A DNA stretch of 34,239 nt from the IMG/VR virus record IMGVR_UViG_2917881069_000005; one strand, 5' to 3'. The notes below the pieces were generated by a model that ran no database searches, was not told where the DNA came from, and saw only the letters and a program-made list of their open reading frames with translations. Both the position numbers and the translations under genes were made by a program. Each line of letters starts with the position of its first letter. The first letter of the stretch is position 1. Of the stretch, positions 4,313 to 15,942 are shown piece by piece. This stretch comes from a virus. Lineage: Duplodnaviria > Heunggongvirae > Uroviricota > Caudoviricetes.

Positions 4313-5137
4313 TCAGGCGGTGAAAGTACCAATAAAGGTTTCTACTTTGCTGTCTTTGAATTTCTCAACAAGCAGATCACGAAATTCGTTAGCCATTTCT
4401 TCCTGCACTGCTTCCAGCTGAATAATGCGCAGAACCAGTACAGGACGATCGCCAGTGATAATGCTGAGGCGTAATTTAAACGGACGTTCTTTCAGGCCTT
4501 CAAACGGAACGCATTTAAATTCAAATGCCACTGGCATAATGTCTTTGGTTTTCGCTTCGACAGACTCCATCAGGGAGCGTTTGCCGCTGAAGTCATTATC
4601 TTCAAAATCAGCGGTCTTGTTTGCTTCAATCGTGATTTTACGGACTGCCGCAGCCGCTTTTGTTGCCTGAATAGCGTCACCATTAGCATCAAAGCCCACA
4701 AGGTAGTCGGCCCAGTCTTCAATCCATTCTGCCAGTGACTTCTGGGAGTTACGCTCGCCGTTAACAGACAACAGGGCAGAGAACGGTGCTGTCTTTTTCA
4801 GTTTGAGAGTGGCGGTGTTATCTGCGTGACCTGGTTCATCAATAGTACCCAGGTTAAGCACACTGACTGCTCGCATATTATCGGCATCGATAAAGCAGCG
4901 GGTGCCTTCATCTGCAAGATCTTTAGAATAACGGGTAAAGTCATCGATGCTGGCAGTGGAAAGCGCACCACGGAAACGGAAGCGATTTAAATTAAATTTT
5001 TCCAGATCATGAATGCGGAAATTCTCAGGCAATGCCACAGCATCGGCACCAATCTTACTGATAATTTCATTAACACCCTGAGCAGAAATAAGGGCATGGA
5101 TTTGATTAATTGCGGTTGCGTCTAAGTTCTGAGACAT
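4313..5137 (-). CDS. yfdQ: DUF2303 protein, YfdQ-like
   Basis: 274-aa ORF; size, position and sequence character match recollection of E. coli CPS-53 YfdQ. Confidence 0.6.
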
Positions 5138-5202: not shown

Positions 5203-5565
5203 TTAATGACCTGCTGCGCGGAGTTTTCCGTCAGGTTCACCGGCAAGAGTCAGTAATTGTCCCTGGTCTTCCTGCAGAATAGTCAGGCGACCACCGCGAT
5301 TGACATACATCGGCGTTTCGGTGGTGTCTTCTTCGGAAATTTTCCCGCGGTTAGTCGGGCGAACATATGAGAGTTTGTGTTTGATTTTCACACGGTTCTC
5401 ATCAAACGGTTCGATGTCCAGATTGACCGAGACTTTACCTTTGTTTTTCGTGTTCATCACACCGGAAGCGACTTCACTGAGAACTGCGCCGAGTTTGGTT
5501 TCAAATACGCCGCCGTCCAGTTCTACGATAAATTCCTGCACGTTGGTACTGCGTTCGCTAGCCAT
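5203..5565 (-). CDS. hypothetical protein, YfdP-like (120 aa)
   Basis: Start set at internal MASERS with GAGGAG 8 nt upstream (ORF track 5203..5796 is an N-terminally over-extended frame). Confidence 0.5.
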   Translation of the reverse strand: MASERSTNVQEFIVELDGGVFETKLGAVLSEVASGVMNTKNKGKVSVNLDIEPFDENRVKIKHKLSYVRPTNRGKISEEDTTETPMYVNRGGRLTILQEDQGQLLTLAGEPDGKLRAAGH

Positions 5566-5613
5566 TTTGCTGCTCCTCATCATATCGACCCTGCAAGGTC
5601 GGTTGGTTTCTCC

Positions 5614-6233: not shown

Positions 6234-6908
6234 TTAGGCCTTTATTTTGTATCTTCTTGGTTTTCCCGAGAAAATCACTGTACCAATTATAGAGCAATTA
6301 CCGTTGATCTTAATGTAAGGTTCAGGCCAGTTTGGGTTTAATGCTTTGAGGTAACGCTGTGTTCCATCTTCTATCAACCGCTTGAAGGTGGTTTCGCCTG
6401 TATCGTGCATCAATGCAATAACGTCGTCACCGTGGCAGGCAGGGACTTCAGGATCAACAAAAATCATGTCTCCCGGGCGGTACTCATCAATCATTGAATC
6501 ACCAATCACCCGCAAGATATAAGTCATTTCGCCACAGGGTACAGGGCAGGGATAAGTTTCTGCTGTGCTCAAATCAACCTCAGAATAGCCAACTTCTTTC
6601 CATGCTCCGGCCTGTACCCATGATATGACAGGGACTAACGTTATTTGTTTGTTAGTGATTGAAACATCAGGTTTTTTTGTGATGTTCGTTGTCTGGTGTT
6701 CTTGATCAAGCCATCCGACAGGCAGGTCGAAACATTTTTCGATGTGCCGTGCCATGCTGTCACCGATATTTTTAGTTGCACCATCTCCCATAAACCTGCT
6801 GGTCTGGGTTGGCTCGCGATCAATCATGGTGGCAAAGGAAGAATTCCCGCCAACACCATCTCTCAGTTTTCTGGCGTTAGACCGCCGGATGTCATGGACT
6901 GTTTTCAT
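6234..6908 (-). CDS. CI-like prophage repressor with LexA-like S24 peptidase domain
   Basis: 224-aa ORF; C-terminal S24 signature (GDSM...GD.IFVDPE, Ser/Lys-dyad-type region); divergent from cro-like gene. Confidence 0.8.
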   Translation of the reverse strand: MKTVHDIRRSNARKLRDGVGGNSSFATMIDREPTQTSRFMGDGATKNIGDSMARHIEKCFDLPVGWLDQEHQTTNITKKPDVSITNKQITLVPVISWVQAGAWKEVGYSEVDLSTAETYPCPVPCGEMTYILRVIGDSMIDEYRPGDMIFVDPEVPACHGDDVIALMHDTGETTFKRLIEDGTQRYLKALNPNWPEPYIKINGNCSIIGTVIFSGKPRRYKIKA

Positions 6909-7230: not shown

Positions 7231-7794
7231 ATGAGGCTAACCGTGGGTAAGCATCACTGGAAAGTAGAAAAACAGCCTGAGTGGTACGTGAAAGCTGTCA
7301 GAAAAACTATCGCGGCGTTGCCGGGGGGGTACGCTGAAGCTGCTGAGTGGCTGGATGTAACAGAGAACGCTTTATTCAACCGCCTTCGTGCAGATGGCGA
7401 TCAGATTTTCCCGCTGGGATGGGCAATGATTTTACAGCGCGCGGCTGGCACTCACTACATTGCGGATGCTGTCGCACAGTCTGCTGGTGGGGTGTTTGTA
7501 TCGCTTCCTGAAATTGAGGAAGTAGAGAACGCCGATATAAACCAGCGCCTGCTGGAAGTCATCGAACAGATCGGGAGTTACTCAAAGCAGATTCGTTCGG
7601 CAATCGAAGATGGGGTAGTGGAGCCACACGAGCAGACAGCAATTAATGATGAGTTGTATCTGTCAATTTCGAAGCTCCAGGAGCATGCAGCACTGGTCTA
7701 CAAAATCTTTTGCGCTCCAGAAAAGAGTGACGCCCGCGAGTGTGCAGCTCCGGGCGTCGTGGCGTTTTGTGTCTGTGGAGAAACTAACGCATGA
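7231..7794 (+). CDS. YdaT-like protein (proposed CII-type regulator)
   Basis: 187-aa ORF directly after cro; position and sequence character as in Rac-type ydaS-ydaT pairs. Confidence 0.4.
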   Translation: MRLTVGKHHWKVEKQPEWYVKAVRKTIAALPGGYAEAAEWLDVTENALFNRLRADGDQIFPLGWAMILQRAAGTHYIADAVAQSAGGVFVSLPEIEEVENADINQRLLEVIEQIGSYSKQIRSAIEDGVVEPHEQTAINDELYLSISKLQEHAALVYKIFCAPEKSDARECAAPGVVAFCVCGETNA

Positions 7795-8627
7795 ACAGTT
7801 TAACGGCAAATAATCGTTTGTCGCAACAGCTGGTGGTCAGTGTCGCTGAACACCTGTTGTTACGGCATGAATGCAGATTACCAAATCACCTGGCTGTAAG
7901 TAACCACAGAGAACTTTACCTGACTGTGGGGGGCGAGTTGTGCAGGAACTTAACCGCTGGTTTCGTGACGGAAGAGGGCTTTATGTCCATGTTATTCGTT
8001 GGGAGCCAGAAACACAGCGCGTTATCTATCTTCGCAAAGACTACCCGCATGAGTGCTTTAGTCCTTTGTGGAAATTCAGGCGTGATTTTGTTGAGTGTGA
8101 AGGACCACCAGCACATTGATTCTGCCATTCCGGGACGTTACACTGTTCAGGCACCTTATAAAGCGGGTGCCGGGATTGGCGTCCTGGAATTGCATACGGC
8201 GACAATTGGCGCGTTAGCGTCTTTTTTGTTGCTACAACTCAGCTATACCCAAATTATGGTGGGCTGGGTGGGGGCACCGAAAGGTGCGCCGGTTTCCGTA
8301 TGCGCCGGTTACGCCAACCCTGCTCAGTTCACCACCAGCGAAATTGGCGTTTCCGGTGGTGGAAGTTATCCATTGCATACGGAGGCTGCCATCATGGCTA
8401 CTGTCCCAGCCCTCTCTCGTCTGAATGATGACGACTTACATAAACTCAGTTATGTAACAACTGCACTACGTGCTCTGCGCAAGGTAACTCTTTCGGATCC
8501 GCAGGCGCATCAGGTTCTGGTAGAAACCCTTCTTAACTTGCAGGCTGAACGTATTCGTCTGGCGGATAAGGCTAATTTTCATATTCACCGTCTCCTTAAT
8601 ATCAGCGGAGGGCATCGTCATGCTTAA
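7791..8627 (+). CDS. hypothetical protein
   Basis: 278-aa ORF; ATGA overlap with upstream stop suggests translational coupling; no domain recognised. Confidence 0.4.
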   Translation: MNSLTANNRLSQQLVVSVAEHLLLRHECRLPNHLAVSNHRELYLTVGGELCRNLTAGFVTEEGFMSMLFVGSQKHSALSIFAKTTRMSALVLCGNSGVILLSVKDHQHIDSAIPGRYTVQAPYKAGAGIGVLELHTATIGALASFLLLQLSYTQIMVGWVGAPKGAPVSVCAGYANPAQFTTSEIGVSGGGSYPLHTEAAIMATVPALSRLNDDDLHKLSYVTTALRALRKVTLSDPQAHQVLVETLLNLQAERIRLADKANFHIHRLLNISGGHRHA

Positions 8628-8856
8628 TCCGTTGATTCTCAATATTTGCCGTTTGCTTCAGCGTAAAAAAACATCAATTCCTACAGTTGGGCAGTGGTAC
8701 ACCACGCCTGCAGGGCATGTTCTACGTGTTAGCCTGGTTGACCGTGAATGTCAGAAGGTGATTTGTGAACCGCTGGGCCGTAATTACCGCGTCAGTATGC
8801 CGCTTATAGCCTTTCGCTCCGGAAAAAACATGAAGCATCTCGGAGGTGCAGCATGA
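8620..8856 (+). CDS. hypothetical protein (78 aa)
   Basis: ORF track; 8-bp overlap with upstream gene and ATGA overlap with downstream replication gene. Confidence 0.35.
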   Translation: MLNPLILNICRLLQRKKTSIPTVGQWYTTPAGHVLRVSLVDRECQKVICEPLGRNYRVSMPLIAFRSGKNMKHLGGAA

Positions 8857-9671
8857 GTATGGAGCTGATGGTTAAAGCGATGAAAATTCGAGTGGGTAAT
8901 CCATTGCGAAAACTGGTTCTGATCAAGCTGGCTGATAATGCCAGCGATCAGGGTGAGTGCTGGCCCAGCTACCAGCATATTGCTGACCAGTGCGAGATTA
9001 GCAAACGTTCTGTGATGAATCATATTGCGGCCCTTTGTGAGTCCGGGCTGGTAAAAAAAGTCACCCGGAAAGGTGAAAAAGGTAACTCAAGTAATATCTA
9101 TCTCCTTCATCTGGATGGTGCAGGAGATTCACTAGGGGGTAGTGCAAATAATTCACTATCTGGTGCAGCAAATTCACCAGGTAGTGCAGGAGTTGCACCA
9201 GGGGGTAGTGCAGGAGATTCACCCAGAACCAGTCACTCTTTTGAACCAGTCAAAGAATCAGTCAATGAACCAATAGCTTTTGGTGCATCTGCTGATGAGT
9301 CTGTGCGAGTTCGTTCAAACCGACCGGAATACTCTCCGGAGTTTGAGCAGGCATGGCTGGCATATCCCAAACGTGCTGGTGGCAATTCAAAATCTGCAGC
9401 CTTCAAAGCCTGGAAAGCCCGTTTGAATGAGGGGGTAAACCCCGAAACCATGCTGGAAGGTGTGAAACGCTACGCGGGCTGGGTATCTGCGATGGGTAAC
9501 AGTGGCACACAATTTGTGAAACAGGCTGTCACGTTCTTTGGTCCGGATCGTCATTTCGAAGAATCCTGGGAAGTTCCTGCGGTATCTTCAGCCAGACGCG
9601 AGGACCCGTACTTCAAAGCCAGTTACGACAACGTGGACTACAGCCAGATCCCGGCAGGATTCAGGGGGTGA
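8853..9671 (+). CDS. replication initiator, O-like (N-terminal HTH, internal Gly/Ser/Ala linker encoded by iterons)
   Basis: N-terminal LVLIKLADNASDQGECWPSYQHIADQCEISKRSVMNHIAALCESGLV resembles phage replication-protein HTH; repeat array within gene. Confidence 0.6.
   Translation: MSMELMVKAMKIRVGNPLRKLVLIKLADNASDQGECWPSYQHIADQCEISKRSVMNHIAALCESGLVKKVTRKGEKGNSSNIYLLHLDGAGDSLGGSANNSLSGAANSPGSAGVAPGGSAGDSPRTSHSFEPVKESVNEPIAFGASADESVRVRSNRPEYSPEFEQAWLAYPKRAGGNSKSAAFKAWKARLNEGVNPETMLEGVKRYAGWVSAMGNSGTQFVKQAVTFFGPDRHFEESWEVPAVSSARREDPYFKASYDNVDYSQIPAGFRG
9110..9225 (+). repeat. five about 21-24-bp iterons (candidate ori) inside the O-like gene
   Basis: Units GGTGCAGGAGATTCAC / GGGGGTAGTGCAAATAATTCAC / GGTGCAGCAAATTCACC / GGTAGTGCAGGAGTTGCACC / GGGGGTAGTGCAGGAGATTCACC, followed by an A/T-richer stretch with GAACCAGTCA repeats. 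Confidence 0.6.
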
Positions 9672-9673
9672 TC

Positions 9674-10162
9674 ATGAGTCTTTTGAATGAAGTTCAGAAA
9701 TTCATTGAAGCCCATCCGGGGTGTACTTCCGGAGACATTGCGGATGCTTTTACAGGTTACTCACGGCAGCGCGTTCTGCAGTCAGCAAGCAAGTTACGTC
9801 AGAGTGGGCGTGTGGCTCACCGTTGTGAAGGGGATACACGCAGACATTTCCCGCGCCTGACTGAGAGAGCGCAGGAGCCGGAACCACAACCAGTTCGTGA
9901 AACCAGACCTGTGCGCAATTTCTATGTCGGCACTAACGATCCACGGGTGATTTTGTGCCTGACCCGCCAGGCTGAAGAACTGGAGTCAAGGGGCTTATAC
10001 CGTCGTGCTGCAACCGTGTGGATGGCGGCATTCCGTGAAAGCCACTCCCAGCCAGAACGAAACAATTTTCTGGCGCGTCGTGAGCGGTGCTTACGGAAAA
10101 GCAGCAAGCGCGCTGCATCGGGTGAAGAGTGGTATCTGTCAGGGAATTACGTGGGGGCTTAA
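9674..10162 (+). CDS. PerC-like putative transcriptional regulator
   Basis: C-terminal LESRGLYRRAATVWMAA resembles PerC-family motif; ATG 9674 preceded by AGGGGG. Confidence 0.4.
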   Translation: MSLLNEVQKFIEAHPGCTSGDIADAFTGYSRQRVLQSASKLRQSGRVAHRCEGDTRRHFPRLTERAQEPEPQPVRETRPVRNFYVGTNDPRVILCLTRQAEELESRGLYRRAATVWMAAFRESHSQPERNNFLARRERCLRKSSKRAASGEEWYLSGNYVGA

Positions 10163-10815
10163 TGAGTAATAAATATTGCCAGGCGCTGGTGGAACTGCGG
10201 AACAAACCAGTCCATGAACTGAAGGAAGTGGGCGATCAGTGGCGCACGCCGGACAACATTTTCTGGGGAATTAACACCCTGTTTGGCCCGTTTGTTCTGG
10301 ATCTGTTCACTGACGGTGATAACGCCAAATGTGCTGCGTATTACACGGCGGAAGACAACGCGCTGGCGCATGACTGGTCAGAACGTCTTGCGGAGCTTAA
10401 AGGTGCTGCCTTTGGTAATCCCCCATACAGCCGCGCCAGTCAGCATGAGGGGCAATACATCACCGGCATGCGTTACATCATGAAACATGCCAGTGCCATG
10501 CGTGATAAGGGCGGGCGCTATGTTTTCCTGATCAAAGCTGCCACCAGCGAAGTGTGGTGGCCGGAAGATGCGGACCATATTGCTTTTATTCGCGGGCGTA
10601 TTGGTTTTGAACTGCCTGCCTGGTTTATCCCGAAGGACGAGAAGCAGGTGCCGACAGGAGCGTTCTTCGCTGGTGCTATTGCTGTTTTCGACAAGACCTG
10701 GAAGGGACCGGCAATCAGCTACATCGGGCGCGATGAACTTGAGGCATGTGGTGAGGCGTTTCTGGCGCAGGTTCGCCAGCAGGCGGAAAAACTGGTCAGG
10801 GAGATGGCGGCATGA
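10162..10815 (+). CDS. phage-type DNA N6-adenine methyltransferase (Dam-like)
   Basis: NPPY motif (GNPPYSR); start at MSNKYCQ with TAATG overlap; ORF track 10129..10815. Confidence 0.75.
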   Translation: MSNKYCQALVELRNKPVHELKEVGDQWRTPDNIFWGINTLFGPFVLDLFTDGDNAKCAAYYTAEDNALAHDWSERLAELKGAAFGNPPYSRASQHEGQYITGMRYIMKHASAMRDKGGRYVFLIKAATSEVWWPEDADHIAFIRGRIGFELPAWFIPKDEKQVPTGAFFAGAIAVFDKTWKGPAISYIGRDELEACGEAFLAQVRQQAEKLVREMAA

Positions 10816-11138
10816 CGACGTTAACTCAATGCCAGCAGCAGGTGCTGGATATGCTGATTTCTTATCAGAAAGAACGTGGCTTCCCGCCAACCAATCAGGA
10901 GGTGGCAACCATGCTGGGATACCGTTCGGTGAATGCAGCGGTGGAGCATCTTCGCGCACTGGAGAAAAAAGGCGTCATCACGATAAAGCGTGGTGTGGCC
11001 CGGGGGATAACGCTTCATACCGCGGTGAAGGACGACGACAGCGAGGTGGTCGGGATTATCCGCTCACTGCTTGCCGGTGAGGAAAACGCCAGGCTGCGTG
11101 CAGCCCGCTGGTTACATGAGAGGGGCCTGAAAGTATGA
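10812..11138 (+). CDS. LexA N-terminal DNA-binding-domain-like protein lacking the S24 peptidase domain
   Basis: LTQCQQQVLDMLISYQKERGFPPTNQEVATMLGYRSVNAAVEHLRALEKKGVI closely resembles LexA winged-HTH; only 108 aa. Confidence 0.6.
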   Translation: MTTLTQCQQQVLDMLISYQKERGFPPTNQEVATMLGYRSVNAAVEHLRALEKKGVITIKRGVARGITLHTAVKDDDSEVVGIIRSLLAGEENARLRAARWLHERGLKV

Positions 11139-11524
11139 AGCTGATTCTGCCTTTTCCGCCCAGCGTGAACACGTACTGGCGACACCCCAACAAAGGGGCG
11201 TTTGCTGGTAAGAGCCTGATAAGCGCGGCGGGGCGAAAATTCCAGAGCGCGGCGTGCGCTGCAATAGTTGAGCAGTTACGTCGTCTGCCGAAACCAACGT
11301 CGGCACCTGCTTCAGTGGAGATCGTGTTGTTTCCTCCGGATAACCGGATCCGCGATCTGGACAACTATAACAAGGCGCTGTTTGACGCCCTGACCCACGC
11401 GGGTGTGTGGGAAGACGACAGCCAGGTGAAAAGAATGCTGGTGGAGTGGGGACCAGTTATCCCGGAAGGGAAGGTCGAGATCACTATCAGTAAGTACGAG
11501 AAAACGGCGGGTGCAGCCGCCTGA
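11135..11524 (+). CDS. rusA: Holliday junction resolvase RusA
   Basis: 129 aa; RusA signature including DLDNYNKALFDALT. Confidence 0.8.
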   Translation: MKLILPFPPSVNTYWRHPNKGAFAGKSLISAAGRKFQSAACAAIVEQLRRLPKPTSAPASVEIVLFPPDNRIRDLDNYNKALFDALTHAGVWEDDSQVKRMLVEWGPVIPEGKVEITISKYEKTAGAAA

Positions 11525-11543
11525 TTAAGAGGAGAAACGAAGT

Positions 11544-12353
11544 ATGAATAATCTGATGGTCATTGATGGTATTGAAGTTCGTCGTGATGCTTATGGGCGT
11601 TACAGCCTGAACGATCTGCATCGCGCAGCAGTAGCATCTGGTGCAAATGCCAGAACCAAGGAGCCAGGAAAGTTTCTTTCCAGCCAACAAACTGTTGAGC
11701 TTGTTCATGAATTGACCAACACCCAGAATTTGGGTGTTGACCCGGTGAGTGTGATTCATGGGGGAAATGAACGGGGAACGTATGTCTGCAAGGAACTGGT
11801 GTATGCCTATGCAATGTGGATCAGTCCATCATTCCATCTGAAGGTGATCCGTACTTTCGACATGGTAACCAGCGCACCGGATAAATTATCCGGACAGGCT
11901 GCTGACAAGATGCAGGCTGGTGTGATTCTGCTGGACTTTATGCGCCGGGAATTAAACCTGTCTAACTCTTCAGTGCTTGGTGCCTGTCAGAAACTCCAGG
12001 AGGCTGTTGGCTTACCGAATCTGGCACCGCGCTATGCCATTGATGCTCCTGCTGACGCGCCTGATGGCTCAAGCCGCCCCACGCTGTCACTGAGTGCACT
12101 GCTGAAGCAGTATGGTATCCGCCTGACAGCTAATCAGGCATATCACCAGATGGCGAAGCTGGGGATCGTTGAACAACGTGAACGATACAGCCGTACCGCG
12201 ATTAACAACATCAAAAAATTCTGGTCGCTGACGGCGAAAGGCTGCATGTTCGGTAAGAACATCACCAGCCCCGCAAATCCGCGCGAGACGCAGCCGCATT
12301 TCTTCGAATCCCGATTCCCTGAGCTGTTAAAGCTGCTCGATACCGTTCATTGA
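11544..12353 (+). CDS. KilA-N domain protein (antirepressor-like)
   Basis: N-terminal YSLNDLHRAA-type KilA-N signature; 269 aa. Confidence 0.55.
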   Translation: MNNLMVIDGIEVRRDAYGRYSLNDLHRAAVASGANARTKEPGKFLSSQQTVELVHELTNTQNLGVDPVSVIHGGNERGTYVCKELVYAYAMWISPSFHLKVIRTFDMVTSAPDKLSGQAADKMQAGVILLDFMRRELNLSNSSVLGACQKLQEAVGLPNLAPRYAIDAPADAPDGSSRPTLSLSALLKQYGIRLTANQAYHQMAKLGIVEQRERYSRTAINNIKKFWSLTAKGCMFGKNITSPANPRETQPHFFESRFPELLKLLDTVH

Positions 12354-12354
12354 G

Positions 12355-13350
12355 GTGACCGTGAGAGCACTACTGACCCCTGAAATTGCCCCGCGTATGG
12401 GGATCGTATTGTTCAGACCAGGTTCAGAGCTGATGCCCCTGTTTATGCAGGGGCGTGTCCTGCTGGAGCCTGAGCCGGAACGTTATTCATCTTTCGCCAG
12501 TGGTGCCGTTCCGGCGGCATCACAACCGCTGGCGGATGATCCTGCCGTTCAGGCCGTGTTCCGCAATGAGGCAGTGATCCGTCGTGCTGGTGGCGTGGAA
12601 TGTCTTGAAAGCTGGTTACTTCGTGAAAAAGGCTGCCAGTGGCCTCATTCCGACTGGCACAGCGAGAACATGACCACAATGCGACACGCTCCGGGCGCAA
12701 TCCGTCTGTGCTGGCACTGCGATAACCAGCTGCGCGATCAGTTCACGGAACGGCTGGAATCAATGGCAACGGATAACTGTGCCCGCTGGGTGTTGTCTGT
12801 TGTGCGTCGGGATCTCGGTTTTGATGATAGTCACGTTGTGACAATGCCGGAACTGTGCTGGTGGCTGATTCGTAATGATCTGGCGGATGCCTTACCGGAA
12901 AGTGCAGCCCGTAAGGCACTGAGATTACCGAAGCCTGTTGTGCCGTCTGTTACCCGGGAAAGTGACCTTGTGCCTTCGGTTCCTGCCACCAGCATCATCC
13001 AGGATAAAGTGAAAAAGGTGCTGGCGCTGAAAGTGGATCCGGAGTCGCCGGAGTCTTTTATGTTACGCCCAAAACGTCGCCGCTGGGTTAATGAAAAGTA
13101 CACACGCTGGGTTAAGACACAGCCGTGTGCATGTTGTGGTAAGCCTGCTGATGATCCCCACCACCTGATAGGTCACGGTCAGGGTGGAATGGGTACAAAA
13201 GCGCATGACCTCTTTGTGTTGCCTTTGTGCAGAAAGCATCACGACGAGCTGCATGCGGATACCGTGGCATTTGAAGAGAAGTATGGCTCCCAGCTGGAGC
13301 TGATATTTCGTTTTATCGATCGTGCGCTGGCAATTGGCGTGCTGGCCTGA
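12355..13350 (+). CDS. DUF968-type protein with C-terminal Cys/His (HNH-like) motif
   Basis: CACCGKPADDPHHLIGHGQGGMGTKAHDLFVLPLCRKHHDELH; GTG start. Confidence 0.55.
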   Translation: MTVRALLTPEIAPRMGIVLFRPGSELMPLFMQGRVLLEPEPERYSSFASGAVPAASQPLADDPAVQAVFRNEAVIRRAGGVECLESWLLREKGCQWPHSDWHSENMTTMRHAPGAIRLCWHCDNQLRDQFTERLESMATDNCARWVLSVVRRDLGFDDSHVVTMPELCWWLIRNDLADALPESAARKALRLPKPVVPSVTRESDLVPSVPATSIIQDKVKKVLALKVDPESPESFMLRPKRRRWVNEKYTRWVKTQPCACCGKPADDPHHLIGHGQGGMGTKAHDLFVLPLCRKHHDELHADTVAFEEKYGSQLELIFRFIDRALAIGVLA

Positions 13351-13371
13351 TTTTGTGGAGAAAGTTGATGC

Positions 13372-13734
13372 GTGATATTCAAATGGTTCTTGGAACGTTG
13401 GGGGGCATGGGTGGCAAATAATCACGAGGATGTCACCTGGTCGTCTATTGCTGCAGGATTTAAAGGACTAATCCCTTCAAAAGTAAAATCCCGCCCGCAA
13501 TGTTGTGACGATGACGCGATGATCATTTGTGGGTGCATGGCTCGCCTGAAAAAGAACAACAGCGATTTGCACGATTTATTAGTGGATTATTATGTAGGTG
13601 GTATGACGTTTATGGCGCTTGCCCGTAAACATGGGCGTTCTGATTGCTGGGTTGGGCGTTTATTGCAAAAGGCTGAAGGTGTAGTTGATGGCATGTTAAT
13701 GATGTTAGAAATTGAGCTAGAGATGGATCGTTAG
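13372..13734 (+). CDS. late antiterminator Q (short QuuD-type); N-terminus frame-disrupted
   Basis: [27 protein letters not shown] is Q-family-like; long frame can only start at GTG 13372, while a well-placed ATG (13368, GGAG 8 nt upstream) is in another frame and stops after 17 codons. Confidence 0.6.
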
Positions 13735-13776
13735 AAGACCTCTTATTGAGGGGGTAATTGAATCAGTTTAATGTGT

Positions 13777-13807
13777 GGGGAGTCGATTTATTCTCCCCAT
13801 TTTATTT
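13777..13807 (+). terminator. hairpin plus T-rich tract just downstream of Q
   Basis: GGGGAG-N10-CTCCCC followed by ATTTTATTT. Confidence 0.4.
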
Positions 13808-13818
13808 AATTAATTTAC

Positions 13819-14265
13819 TTAAGGTTTTAATTCATCAAGACGTTGTTGGATAGTGTTTTTGCTTGCGTTGTCTGTTATAGCCATTTGTTGTACTTGCCCC
13901 ATTGCCATTTGAGTTTCCATCCACATATCGGCCCACACTTTTGTATCGTTATTAACTTGAGCGATAGTAAATCTGACTTTTGATACCGGGGTTGTTGAAT
14001 AGGCATTGCCGATTAACATTTGTCCAAAAACAGCAGAGCCGCCTTCCAGTTCTTTACCACATATAACACTGCTGTTATCCGCGTTGTAAATTATCAACCC
14101 TCTACTATTGCAGTAATTCACAAGGGCATCTTTGACTTTATCTTTTGTCATATTTTGATAAACCCCCTCAGGTTTTCCTGATTGAGTTTTCTTTATCAAT
14201 GGTACGGAAGAAGTACAACCTGAAATGATAGTTGCGCTAAGTAATAGTACAGTCATTTTATTCAT
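13819..14265 (-). CDS. lipoprotein (moron, opposite strand)
   Basis: 148 aa; signal peptide with lipobox LLSATIISGC; encoded against the direction of flanking late genes. Confidence 0.6.
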   Translation of the reverse strand: MNKMTVLLLSATIISGCTSSVPLIKKTQSGKPEGVYQNMTKDKVKDALVNYCNSRGLIIYNADNSSVICGKELEGGSAVFGQMLIGNAYSTTPVSKVRFTIAQVNNDTKVWADMWMETQMAMGQVQQMAITDNASKNTIQQRLDELKP

Positions 14266-14330
14266 GTTTCTTATCCATTGTTAAGGGCATACCCACACAA
14301 TTATTTTTATTGGAGATGAATAATCAACCG

Positions 14331-14413
14331 TTTACAATCGTAAAAAATCAAATATGCTGTTAAGAGTGGTTACTTCGCCACACAACTTAAACCCGCCGCT
14401 GAGCGGTTTTTTT
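14331..14413 (+). promoter_or_regulatory. candidate late promoter (PR'-like) with short leader and T7-tailed hairpin (tR'-like)
   Basis: TTTACA-N16-TATGCT followed about 40 nt later by CCGC-loop-GCGG and TTTTTTT; weak stem, so tentative. Confidence 0.25.
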
Positions 14414-14511
14414 GTACCTGTAAACTTGGTGCAGTACAGTAAACACGCTGGTGGTCGTGAATACTGACTTTTTATCTTGCTGGCTTTTTAGACAAGAGTT
14501 ATTGGTATGTC

Positions 14512-14739
14512 ATGTTAACCAGAAGGGGAAAAGACATGCTAAAACAGCAAGATATGACAGAAACCGCCGCCGCAGTCCTTCATTTCTTACCTGCTGACAA
14601 GTGGGTAACGCCACGCATGATGACGAGAACTACCGGAGTAAGCGAAGCCCGGTGCCAGTTAATACTGACCCAGTTAGTTCTGGCGGGTCTGGCGAAGGAT
14701 AACGGCGGGTACGGGAATAAATTCAGACGCTGCCAGTAA
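14512..14739 (+). CDS. small hypothetical protein, possibly winged-helix
   Basis: 75-aa ORF; no family recognised. Confidence 0.3.
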   Translation: MLTRRGKDMLKQQDMTETAAAVLHFLPADKWVTPRMMTRTTGVSEARCQLILTQLVLAGLAKDNGGYGNKFRRCQ

Positions 14740-14889
14740 TGGCGGTTTCCTGCTGTGAAAATGGGCGGCTGGTGGGTGTTGGTAGCACCTGCCAGCCATT
14801 CGCTCATGCTTACTGGTCACAAGCGAACCACGGCCCACTGCTTTAGCGCAAAAGCAGAGTGAGCCTACCAGAGTTACGCTTACTGATCC

Positions 14890-15942
14890 ATGAAAAACAC
14901 TGTAAAAATAAACAGCGTTGATTTAATCAACGCTGATTGCCTGCATTTTATTCAGTCCCTGCCTGATGATTCCATTGACCTGATTGTTACCGATCCGCCG
15001 TACTTCAAGGTGAAACCCAACGGCTGGGACAATCAGTGGAAAGGGGACGAAGATTACCTTAAGTGGCTGGATCACTGTCTGGCCCAGTTCTGGCGGGTGT
15101 TAAAACCTGCTGGAAGCCTTTACCTGTTCTGTGGGCATCGCCTGGCATCTGATATTGAGATCATGATGCGTGAACGTTTCAACGTGCTTAACCATATCAT
15201 CTGGGCGAAGCCGTCCGGACGTTGGAATGGGTGTAATAAAGAAAGTCTGCGCGCATATTTTCCTGCCACAGAGCGCGTTCTGTTTGCTGAACATTACCAG
15301 GGGCCATATCGCGGCAAAAGTGACGGCTATGCGGCAAAAGAAAGGGAACTCAAACAGCACATAATGGCACCGCTGATATCGTATTTCAGGGATGCTCGTG
15401 CCGAACTGGGTATAACGGCAAAACAAATTGCCGAAGCCACAGGTAAGAAAAATATGGTTTCCCACTGGTTTGGTGCCAGTCAGTGGCAGTTGCCGAATGA
15501 GGCTGACTATCGGAAGTTACAGGCACTGTTTTCCCGTATAGCGGCAGAGAAGTTTCAGGAACAACAACTGGAACAACCACACCACCAGCTGGTGGCATCT
15601 TATGATTCACTGAATCGCAAATATTCTGAATTGCTGGATGAGTTTAAATCTCTCCGGCGCTATTTCTCCGTATCAGTCTCCGTGCCTTATACCGATGTCT
15701 GGATGCATAAACCCGTTCAGTTCTACCCGGGTAAACATCCGTGTGAGAAACCGGCGGATATGCTCAGGCAAATAATCAATGCCAGTAGTCGACCTGGTGA
15801 GCTGGTTGCTGATTTTTTTATGGGATCCGGTTCCACAATAAAAGCAGCAATGGCGCTGGGGCGTCGGGCCTTAGGTGTTGAGCTTGAGTCAGAGCGGTTT
15901 AACCAGACAGTGAAAGAGATAAACGAGCTGGTGGGGAAATAA
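14890..15942 (+). CDS. DNA methyltransferase, N6_N4 (beta-class amino-MTase) family
   Basis: DPPY motif (LIVTDPPYF) near N-terminus and AdoMet motif FFMGSGST near C-terminus; 350 aa. Confidence 0.8.

Follow-up and report, generated by a model that had tools for sequence, protein, structure and literature searches.

A stand-alone LexA-type DNA-binding protein from the early-right operon of lambdoid phages, putatively a non-cleavable binder of SOS-box-like sites

The early-right operon of a group of lambdoid temperate phages contains a gene, here named lexN, whose product is a LexA-type DNA-binding domain that stands alone, followed by a conserved two-helix tail instead of an S24 domain. The gene was studied in a stretch of DNA of 34,239 nucleotides from a virus of the Caudoviricetes (IMG/VR record IMGVR_UViG_2917881069_000005), which is referred to as the window and comprises most of a lambdoid temperate phage. 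We think that LexN may be a non-cleavable binder of SOS-box-like DNA that is produced during lytic growth, dimerizes through its tail, and keeps or restores repression at LexA-controlled promoters. This is the reading that we prefer, and we hold it tentatively, with slightly less than even confidence. The features on which the following account is based are collected in Table 1.

Table 1. Position of lexN, of its parts, and of the surrounding features in the window
Feature	Position	Strand	Basis
lexN, encoding LexN, a 108-aa stand-alone LexA-type DNA-binding protein (PHROG 362)	10812..11138	+	ORF, Pfam, PHROG, pN/pS
Winged helix-turn-helix (wHTH), residues 1-70, homologous to LexA 1-70	10812..11021	+	1lea alignment, AlphaFold2 (AF2), Foldseek
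Predicted recognition helix, residues 40-52, VNAAVEHLRALEK (LexA: PNAAEEHLKALAR)	10929..10967	+	AF2 helix 40-52
Two-helix tail, residues 74-103, family-specific, candidate dimerization module	11031..11120	+	AF2, conservation
A88-G89, aligned opposite the LexA cleavage site A84-G85, unconserved	11073..11078	+	hhalign, low confidence
dam, Dam-family N6-adenine methyltransferase gene (variable upstream neighbor)	10162..10815	+	Pfam Dam, E 1.4e-45
rusA, Holliday-junction resolvase gene (conserved downstream neighbor)	11135..11524	+	Pfam RusA, E 6.1e-15
S24-type CI repressor gene, immunity region upstream of lexN	6234..6908	-	
Q antiterminator gene, downstream of lexN	13372..13734		
Candidate LexN target, SOS-box-like site CACTGTAAAAATAAACAGCG	14898..14917	.	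PWM score 18.7

The open reading frame of lexN runs from ATG to TGA over 108 codons, with coordinates exactly those of a preliminary description of this DNA, and a GGGAG lies about 9 nt 5' of its start. Residues 1-65 of the product match the complete 65-position Pfam model PF01726 (LexA_DNA_bind) with 69.1 bits and an E-value of 2.8e-19, so that the gathering cut-off of 23.7 bits is exceeded over the whole model. The best match among solved structures is the DNA-binding domain of E. coli LexA (1lea), to residues 2-70 of which LexN aligns ungapped (E 6.5e-16), and over residues 1-70 the two proteins are identical at 35 of 70 positions (50%), again without gaps. The whole of LexN (1-108) corresponds to the whole profile of PHROG 362, annotated as 'transcriptional repressor' (1-106 of 106, E 3.8e-58). 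The score against the NCBIfam LexA equivalog TIGR00498 is 69.8 bits, which is below its cut-off of 110.95, and the match is limited to positions 1-91 of the 203 in the model. A Pfam profile search of LexN found no Peptidase_S24 match, and the protein, which ends at residue 108, lacks the S24 domain bearing the Ser119/Lys156 dyad; this domain also forms the LexA dimer. As rusA starts 4 nt ahead of the lexN stop, there is no space for a second domain. The preliminary description had recognized by eye a LexA N-terminal wHTH that stops before any S24 domain and is translationally coupled between dam and rusA. The LexA_DNA_bind search, the ungapped 1lea alignment, the partial TIGR00498 match, and the ATGA overlaps found at both ends of the gene fully support this structural reading, as does the structural match to LexA presented next, and it is correct in every particular. 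New with respect to it are the conserved two-helix tail, rusA as the conserved partner, and the wide public annotation that already exists.

In the AlphaFold2 model of LexN (mean pLDDT 78), the DNA-binding part is composed of helices 6-22, 28-35 and 40-52 and strands 56-59 and 65-68, which are the three helices and the two-stranded wing of LexA. The top Foldseek match of the model is DNA-bound LexA (3jso), with an rmsd of 1.4 Å over 67 columns and 51% identity, and this superposition is confined to the N-terminal domain. LexN and the LexA DNA-binding domain (1lea, 3jso) hence have the same winged-helix fold, with 50-52% identity over residues 1-70. Behind a low-confidence linker (71-74), two further helices are predicted (74-87 and 93-103; block pLDDT about 86-87), and these are absent from LexA. 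By its conservation, the C-terminal stretch of 38 residues appears as a module in its own right and not as an arbitrary addition: an exhaustive profile search retrieved relatives at 38-46% identity that share the pattern E-(A/V)-V-x-I-I-R-x-L-L-A-x-E-x-x-A-R-x-R-A-x-x-W-L-x-x-x-G. The tail matched no Pfam family, and when it was searched alone PHROG 362 was the only significant PHROG match (E 2.7e-12).

It is this tail through which LexN, without the S24 domain and hence without dimerization or autocleavage of the LexA type, would dimerize according to the model. A layout of an N-terminal winged helix and a short C-terminal helical module is also found in BlaI/MecI-type repressors such as Rv1846c (2g9w), and in the BlaI/MecI family the helical module forms the dimer. 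The Foldseek match of LexN to 2g9w is weak (105 columns, 27% identity, E 0.012, rmsd 7.8 Å) and is not accompanied by a Pfam match; we regard the resemblance as an analogy of architecture only, which is no evidence of homology. Of the 150 best representatives in the same exhaustive profile search, 94 were shorter than 150 aa, and some of these may be fragments from short contigs. Proteins of 140-230 aa with a tandem pair of LexA_DNA_bind domains and no S24 domain were also observed (P0128, P0129, P0135, P0138, P0140, and others), and such tandem proteins would be a covalent route to a bivalent LexA-type binder. The many short and tandem-domain matches indicate that stand-alone LexA DNA-binding domains form a broad class, in which bivalency seems to be reached by more than one route.

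If our preferred reading is right, LexN would be expressed with the early-right operon once the phage has been induced or has infected a cell, and its recognition helix, with most of the CTGT-reading residues of LexA kept, would bind CTGT-containing SOS-box-like palindromes. LexN would do so as a dimer formed via the two-helix tail, possibly with the help of LexA-like contacts between the DNA-binding domains, since the DNA-binding domains of LexA touch each other on the operator (PMC3159453). RecA* would be unable to inactivate LexN, and LexN would not be cleared like the N-terminal fragment of LexA, and in this way repression could be maintained or re-imposed at LexA-controlled promoters during the destruction of host LexA. 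SOS genes of the host, LexA boxes of this phage group, or both may serve as targets. The idea of the preliminary description that LexN occupies SOS boxes uncleavably is in our view plausible.

The expected resistance of LexN to both RecA* inactivation and clearance follows from its lack of an S24 domain, of a conserved Ala-Gly pair, and of a ...VAA C-terminus. Insensitivity to RecA* would be expected by analogy with the non-cleavable LexA(Ind-) mutants. The clearance of the RecA*-generated LexA fragment (residues 1-84) reportedly occurs via the ...VAA end that is exposed by cleavage, as is said of the work of Neher et al. 2003. This fragment resembles LexN in being a LexA DNA-binding domain without the C-terminal domain. 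N-terminal fragments of LexA keep some SOS-box binding and repression, and because they still bind and repress, cells must degrade them; the clearance is carried out by ClpXP (PMC10584840). LexN differs from the fragment in that it ends with ...GLKV and possesses a tail that is predicted to be folded, and it should for these reasons persist.

E. coli LexA reads the SOS box with helix 3, via S39, N41, A42, E44 and E45 (PMC3091678). At these base-contact positions the residues of LexN are S, N, A, V and E, so that four of the five are identical and only E44 is replaced, by a valine; S39, N41, A42, E45, K53, G54, R64 and G65 are identical in LexA and LexN. All 21 close enterobacterial relatives of LexN share S39 and N41, and likewise R38, K53, G54, R64, G65 and I66; E45 is found in 20 of them, and position 42 is occupied by A, S or T. 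Across the family, however, residue 44 is never acidic (V, A, F, T, L or Y), and 5 of 15 diverse members deviate at residue 45, where they have D, G, L, I or T, and the family-wide loss of E44 together with the variable residue 45 indicates that the DNA specificity may have moved. The LexN family shows 50% identity to E. coli LexA versus 55-57% to Halomonas LexA; as it is no nearer to the former than to the latter, it represents an old lineage. A search of species-representative genomes with the recognition-helix pattern returned only chromosomal lexA genes, from Halomonas and other bacteria.

The main rival explanation builds on these deviations. It regards LexN as a phage-specific transcription factor, either activator or repressor, whose specificity has drifted from the SOS box and which serves one or a few phage promoters. 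The age of the lineage, the family-wide absence of an acidic residue 44 and the variability of residue 45 in the distant members are in line with such a drift, and there is a precedent in gp6 of the Bacillus tectivirus GIL01, the only characterized truncated phage homologue of LexA. That protein is 44% identical to the host LexA domain, binds its own palindrome GaCACAnnTGTGaC via K38 and activates the late promoter P3 (PMC6182141). Like LexN, gp6 is the product of a temperate phage and has a LexA DNA-binding domain that stands alone, but it is described as the winged helix alone (PMC6182141), whereas LexN has the conserved tail in addition, keeps LexA-like reading residues, and belongs to a lambdoid phage with Q-dependent late genes. 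A late activator of the gp6 kind would be superfluous here, where the late genes have the Q antiterminator. Further arguments against a drifted specificity are that 20-21 of the 21 enterobacterial sequences retain residues 39, 41 and 45, with A, S or T at 42, and that no conserved non-SOS palindrome was found near lexN; a search of positions 8600-15000 for short inverted repeats that could serve as a phage-specific operator yielded none near the gene. We consider the phage-specific regulator a serious but doubtful alternative.

The distribution of SOS-box-like sites is relevant to our preferred reading, in which LexN binds such sites, and strong SOS boxes, as possible targets, are frequent in lexN-bearing phages. 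The window was scanned with a position weight matrix (PWM) from 20 E. coli boxes that themselves score 13.2-27.2, and a single strong site was found, the score of which was reached by 0 of 200 shuffles. This site lies inside a coding region, in codons 4-9 of an N6_N4 DNA methylase gene; that it is the only one and intragenic speaks against our preferred reading. Both mEp460 and a Klebsiella phage retain its CTG-N10-CAG core, although an amino acid has changed. The box co-occurs with lexN in phage records, a co-occurrence that is confounded by the relatedness of the phages. The methylase gene is the first one after a putative pR' (14331-14358) and tR' (14395-14414). A near-perfect palindrome of 14+14 nt (14910-14938) directly follows the box, a 10+10 palindrome (14838-14857) precedes it, and a comparison of the E. 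coli with the Klebsiella phages shows higher conservation in the 110 nt 5' of the methylase ATG than in the coding sequence. Judging from these elements, the stretch 14780-14940 looks like a regulatory hub. Counts of the plain motif are not significant alone, neither for exact CTGT-N8-ACAG (2 versus 0.56 expected, with 2 reached in 8 of 100 shuffles) nor with one mismatch (16 versus 11.5 expected). Two CTG-N10-CAG sequences at 11958-11973 (CTGTCTAACTCTTCAG) and 11984-11999 (CTGTCAGAAACTCCAG), 26 bp apart, are located inside the KilA-N gene; with SOS-matrix scores of 8.8 or less they are weak and may have arisen by chance.

Sister phages contain additional boxes, which were counted in lexN-bearing phages. 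In 5 of 80 sister loci (L060, L076, L078, L079 and L087), a box with a score of 22-24 follows rusA in a 160-bp gap upstream of a KilA-N gene; its sequence is TACTGTATTTATGAACAGT[GA] or also TACTGTATTTATGAACAGTG, and in L076 it is found at 4765-4784. This suggests that in these five phages an antirepressor-like gene, a variant KilA-N, stands under putative LexA control beside lexN-rusA. The window does not have this box, which counts against our preferred reading; its gap between rusA and the KilA-N gene is only 19 bp. Near-consensus LexA boxes also occur in the immunity region, about 3-3.6 kb upstream of lexN, in 14 of 80 IMG/VR loci. The boxes of mEp460 (L001, 6261-6280) and L008 (836-855), for example TACTGTTTTTACATACAGTA, score 25.8-27.2 and are situated inside the 5' part of S24-type CI genes, and are hence intragenic and not part of an intergenic operator; the CI gene of the window has no LexA box. 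The prophage L006, the LexN of which has 41% identity, contains two strong LexA boxes, at 5560-5579 and 10164-10183. One of these boxes separates the rightward genes leading into lexN from an RNase-toxin/immunity pair (RNAse_A_bac, CdiI_2) that points leftward, and the other follows the lysozyme gene.

The setting of lexN speaks for the time of its expression. The first 25 kb of the window are 98% identical over 84% to the Escherichia phages PhiR55_1 and PhiR40_1, and the window has long stretches in common with mEp460, Ayreon, SfV-type and Stx2c phages. Overlapping stops and starts connect a replication gene (8853..9671), a PerC-like gene, dam, lexN and rusA, with the dam stop and lexN start sharing the ATGA at 10812-10815 and the lexN stop and rusA start sharing that at 11135-11138. 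The start of dam is given in Table 1 as the ATG at 10162, following the mEp460 annotation, while the open reading frame listing has a GTG at 10129. A consensus scan of the + strand from 8600 to the lexN start found no sigma-70-like match; the first one lies downstream of rusA. The immunity region upstream contains, besides the CI gene, a CII-like gene. Thus lexN belongs to the early-right operon, with the replication genes on one side and Q on the other, and it is conserved as such in SfV/mEp460-like lambdoid phages. The absence of a visible promoter of its own, the overlapping stops and starts, and the gene layout together argue that lexN is probably transcribed after induction or infection and not in the quiescent lysogen; LexA, by comparison, is autoregulated. 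Rfam matches to the Hfq-binding RNA isrK (8151-8227, + strand, 61.2 bits) and the C4 antisense RNA (8252-8339, + strand, 80.7 bits) both fall inside a 278-codon 'Ash family' ORF (7791..8627), and this stretch may be an RNA-based module of immunity or antirepressor control, instead of or besides a protein gene. A search with PADLOC for defense systems gave no meaningful match.

The neighbors of lexN differ strongly in their constancy. Among 88 loci, rusA directly follows lexN in 85, usually with a 4-nt overlap, whereas the gene upstream is Dam in 51, PerC in 28 and another one in 9; these counts, as well as the pN/pS values given below, are based on IMG/VR copies that are 96-98% identical and do not describe the diversity of the family. 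A functional coupling of lexN with dam was considered and rejected, as Dam is upstream in only 51 of 88 loci as against 85 of 88 loci with rusA following. In prophages with a LexN of 41-50% identity, lexN is still near and upstream of rusA, which is followed in some of them by an antirepressor-like gene and then by DUF968 and Q; on the upstream side, Dam, a replication protein, a C5 methylase or an unassigned gene is found. From this constancy one could conclude that LexN is an accessory of a recombination module with RusA, either acting on junction resolution itself, through targeting or modulation, or reducing the expression of the LexA-controlled host genes ruvAB, which compete for junctions. 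The adjacency in 85 of 88 loci, and the persistence of the lexN-rusA pair at 41-50% identity while the upstream gene changes among Dam, PerC, replication protein and C5 methylase, would agree with this, but gene order in mosaic lambdoid phages can last without functional coupling, L002 and L006 have an extra ORF between lexN and rusA, and the LexN sequence contains no hint of branched-DNA binding. Also, rusA presumably is widespread without lexN, as in DLP12. We therefore regard a role as RusA accessory as improbable.

The preliminary description had also offered a decoy role. In such a role, LexN would not bind operators but titrate host LexA or RecA* in a dominant-negative manner. The Ala-Gly pair at 88-89 could be taken as a hint in this direction, since the first tail helix aligns weakly with the linker and cleavage-site region of LexA (hhalign reaches LexA residue 87, with low confidence). 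Of the 21 close relatives, however, 15 have G at position 89, the others having N (5) or K (1) there, and a single relative has V at position 88, so that the pair is replaced by AN, AK or VG in 7 of 21; in distant relatives it is absent. With the pair unconserved and the segment predicted to be helical, a retained LexA cleavage site at A88-G89 was rejected. LexA dimerizes and meets RecA* via its C-terminal domain (PMC3159453), which is missing in LexN, and the strongest constraint in LexN rests on the DNA-binding domain. The decoy claim is thus unsupported, and we consider such a role highly improbable.

The selection acting on lexN was determined from 82 copies with 53 distinct nucleotide alleles, all of them intact. 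With pS 0.094 and pN 0.005, pN/pS is 0.057 for the entire gene, 0.012 for residues 1-70 and 0.157 for the tail, and lexN is accordingly a real gene under strong purifying selection. The view that LexN, being the truncated homologue of a two-domain protein, is a decaying, functionless remnant of a full-length repressor gene can be dismissed, as it is refuted by this selection over 53 intact alleles; the frequency of the gene also speaks against it, and so does the fact that relatives with as little as 38% identity still have the full-length architecture with its tail.

This frequency is considerable: of 5426 complete E. coli genomes, 2233 (~41%) carry lexN, which there has the RefSeq label 'LexA family transcriptional regulator'. 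DNA copies were found in 50 phage records, among them SfIV, mEp460 and Stx2 phages, 48 at 95-99% identity and the other two at 90-95%. The existing labels include 'LexA DNA binding domain protein' in mEp460, 'LexA-like protein', and 'repressor, lexA family' in Stx2a phages. The gene is thus an already catalogued and very common lambdoid phage gene, and truncated phage LexA homologues are a published concept, while searches of the literature in full text brought up no functional study on the enterobacterial LexN family. A remnant of the phage type of the window is the prophage CPS-53 of E. coli K-12 (L169, yfdO-yfdN-yfdM). It keeps a replication fragment, the PerC-like yfdN and a truncated dam (yfdM), which are followed by tail-fibre pseudogenes; it is deleted from the middle of dam onward, so that K-12 is without lexN, rusA and everything downstream. 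This may be why lexN has no K-12 name.

In its most far-reaching form, our preferred reading would make LexN a factor for SOS shut-off, a mimic of LexA that is proof against RecA* and with which induced lambdoid phages, the Stx2-converting ones included, re-repress LexA-controlled promoters after LexA cleavage. We consider this specific role unlikely, but if it were true, the host SOS response could be silenced together with the LexA-controlled antirepressors, bacteriocins and morons of co-resident prophages, and the induced phage would gain priority in polylysogens. If LexN has a site of its own instead, it would be one more small phage regulator. As lexN occurs in such a large part of the E. 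coli genomes and in Stx2-converting phages, it is placed at the junction of DNA damage, prophage induction and toxin release. If LexN binds SOS boxes uncleavably, induced prophages would rewrite the SOS program of their host and possibly influence the induction of neighboring prophages, which would then have a bearing on the Shiga-toxin output after antibiotics and on the competition among prophages.
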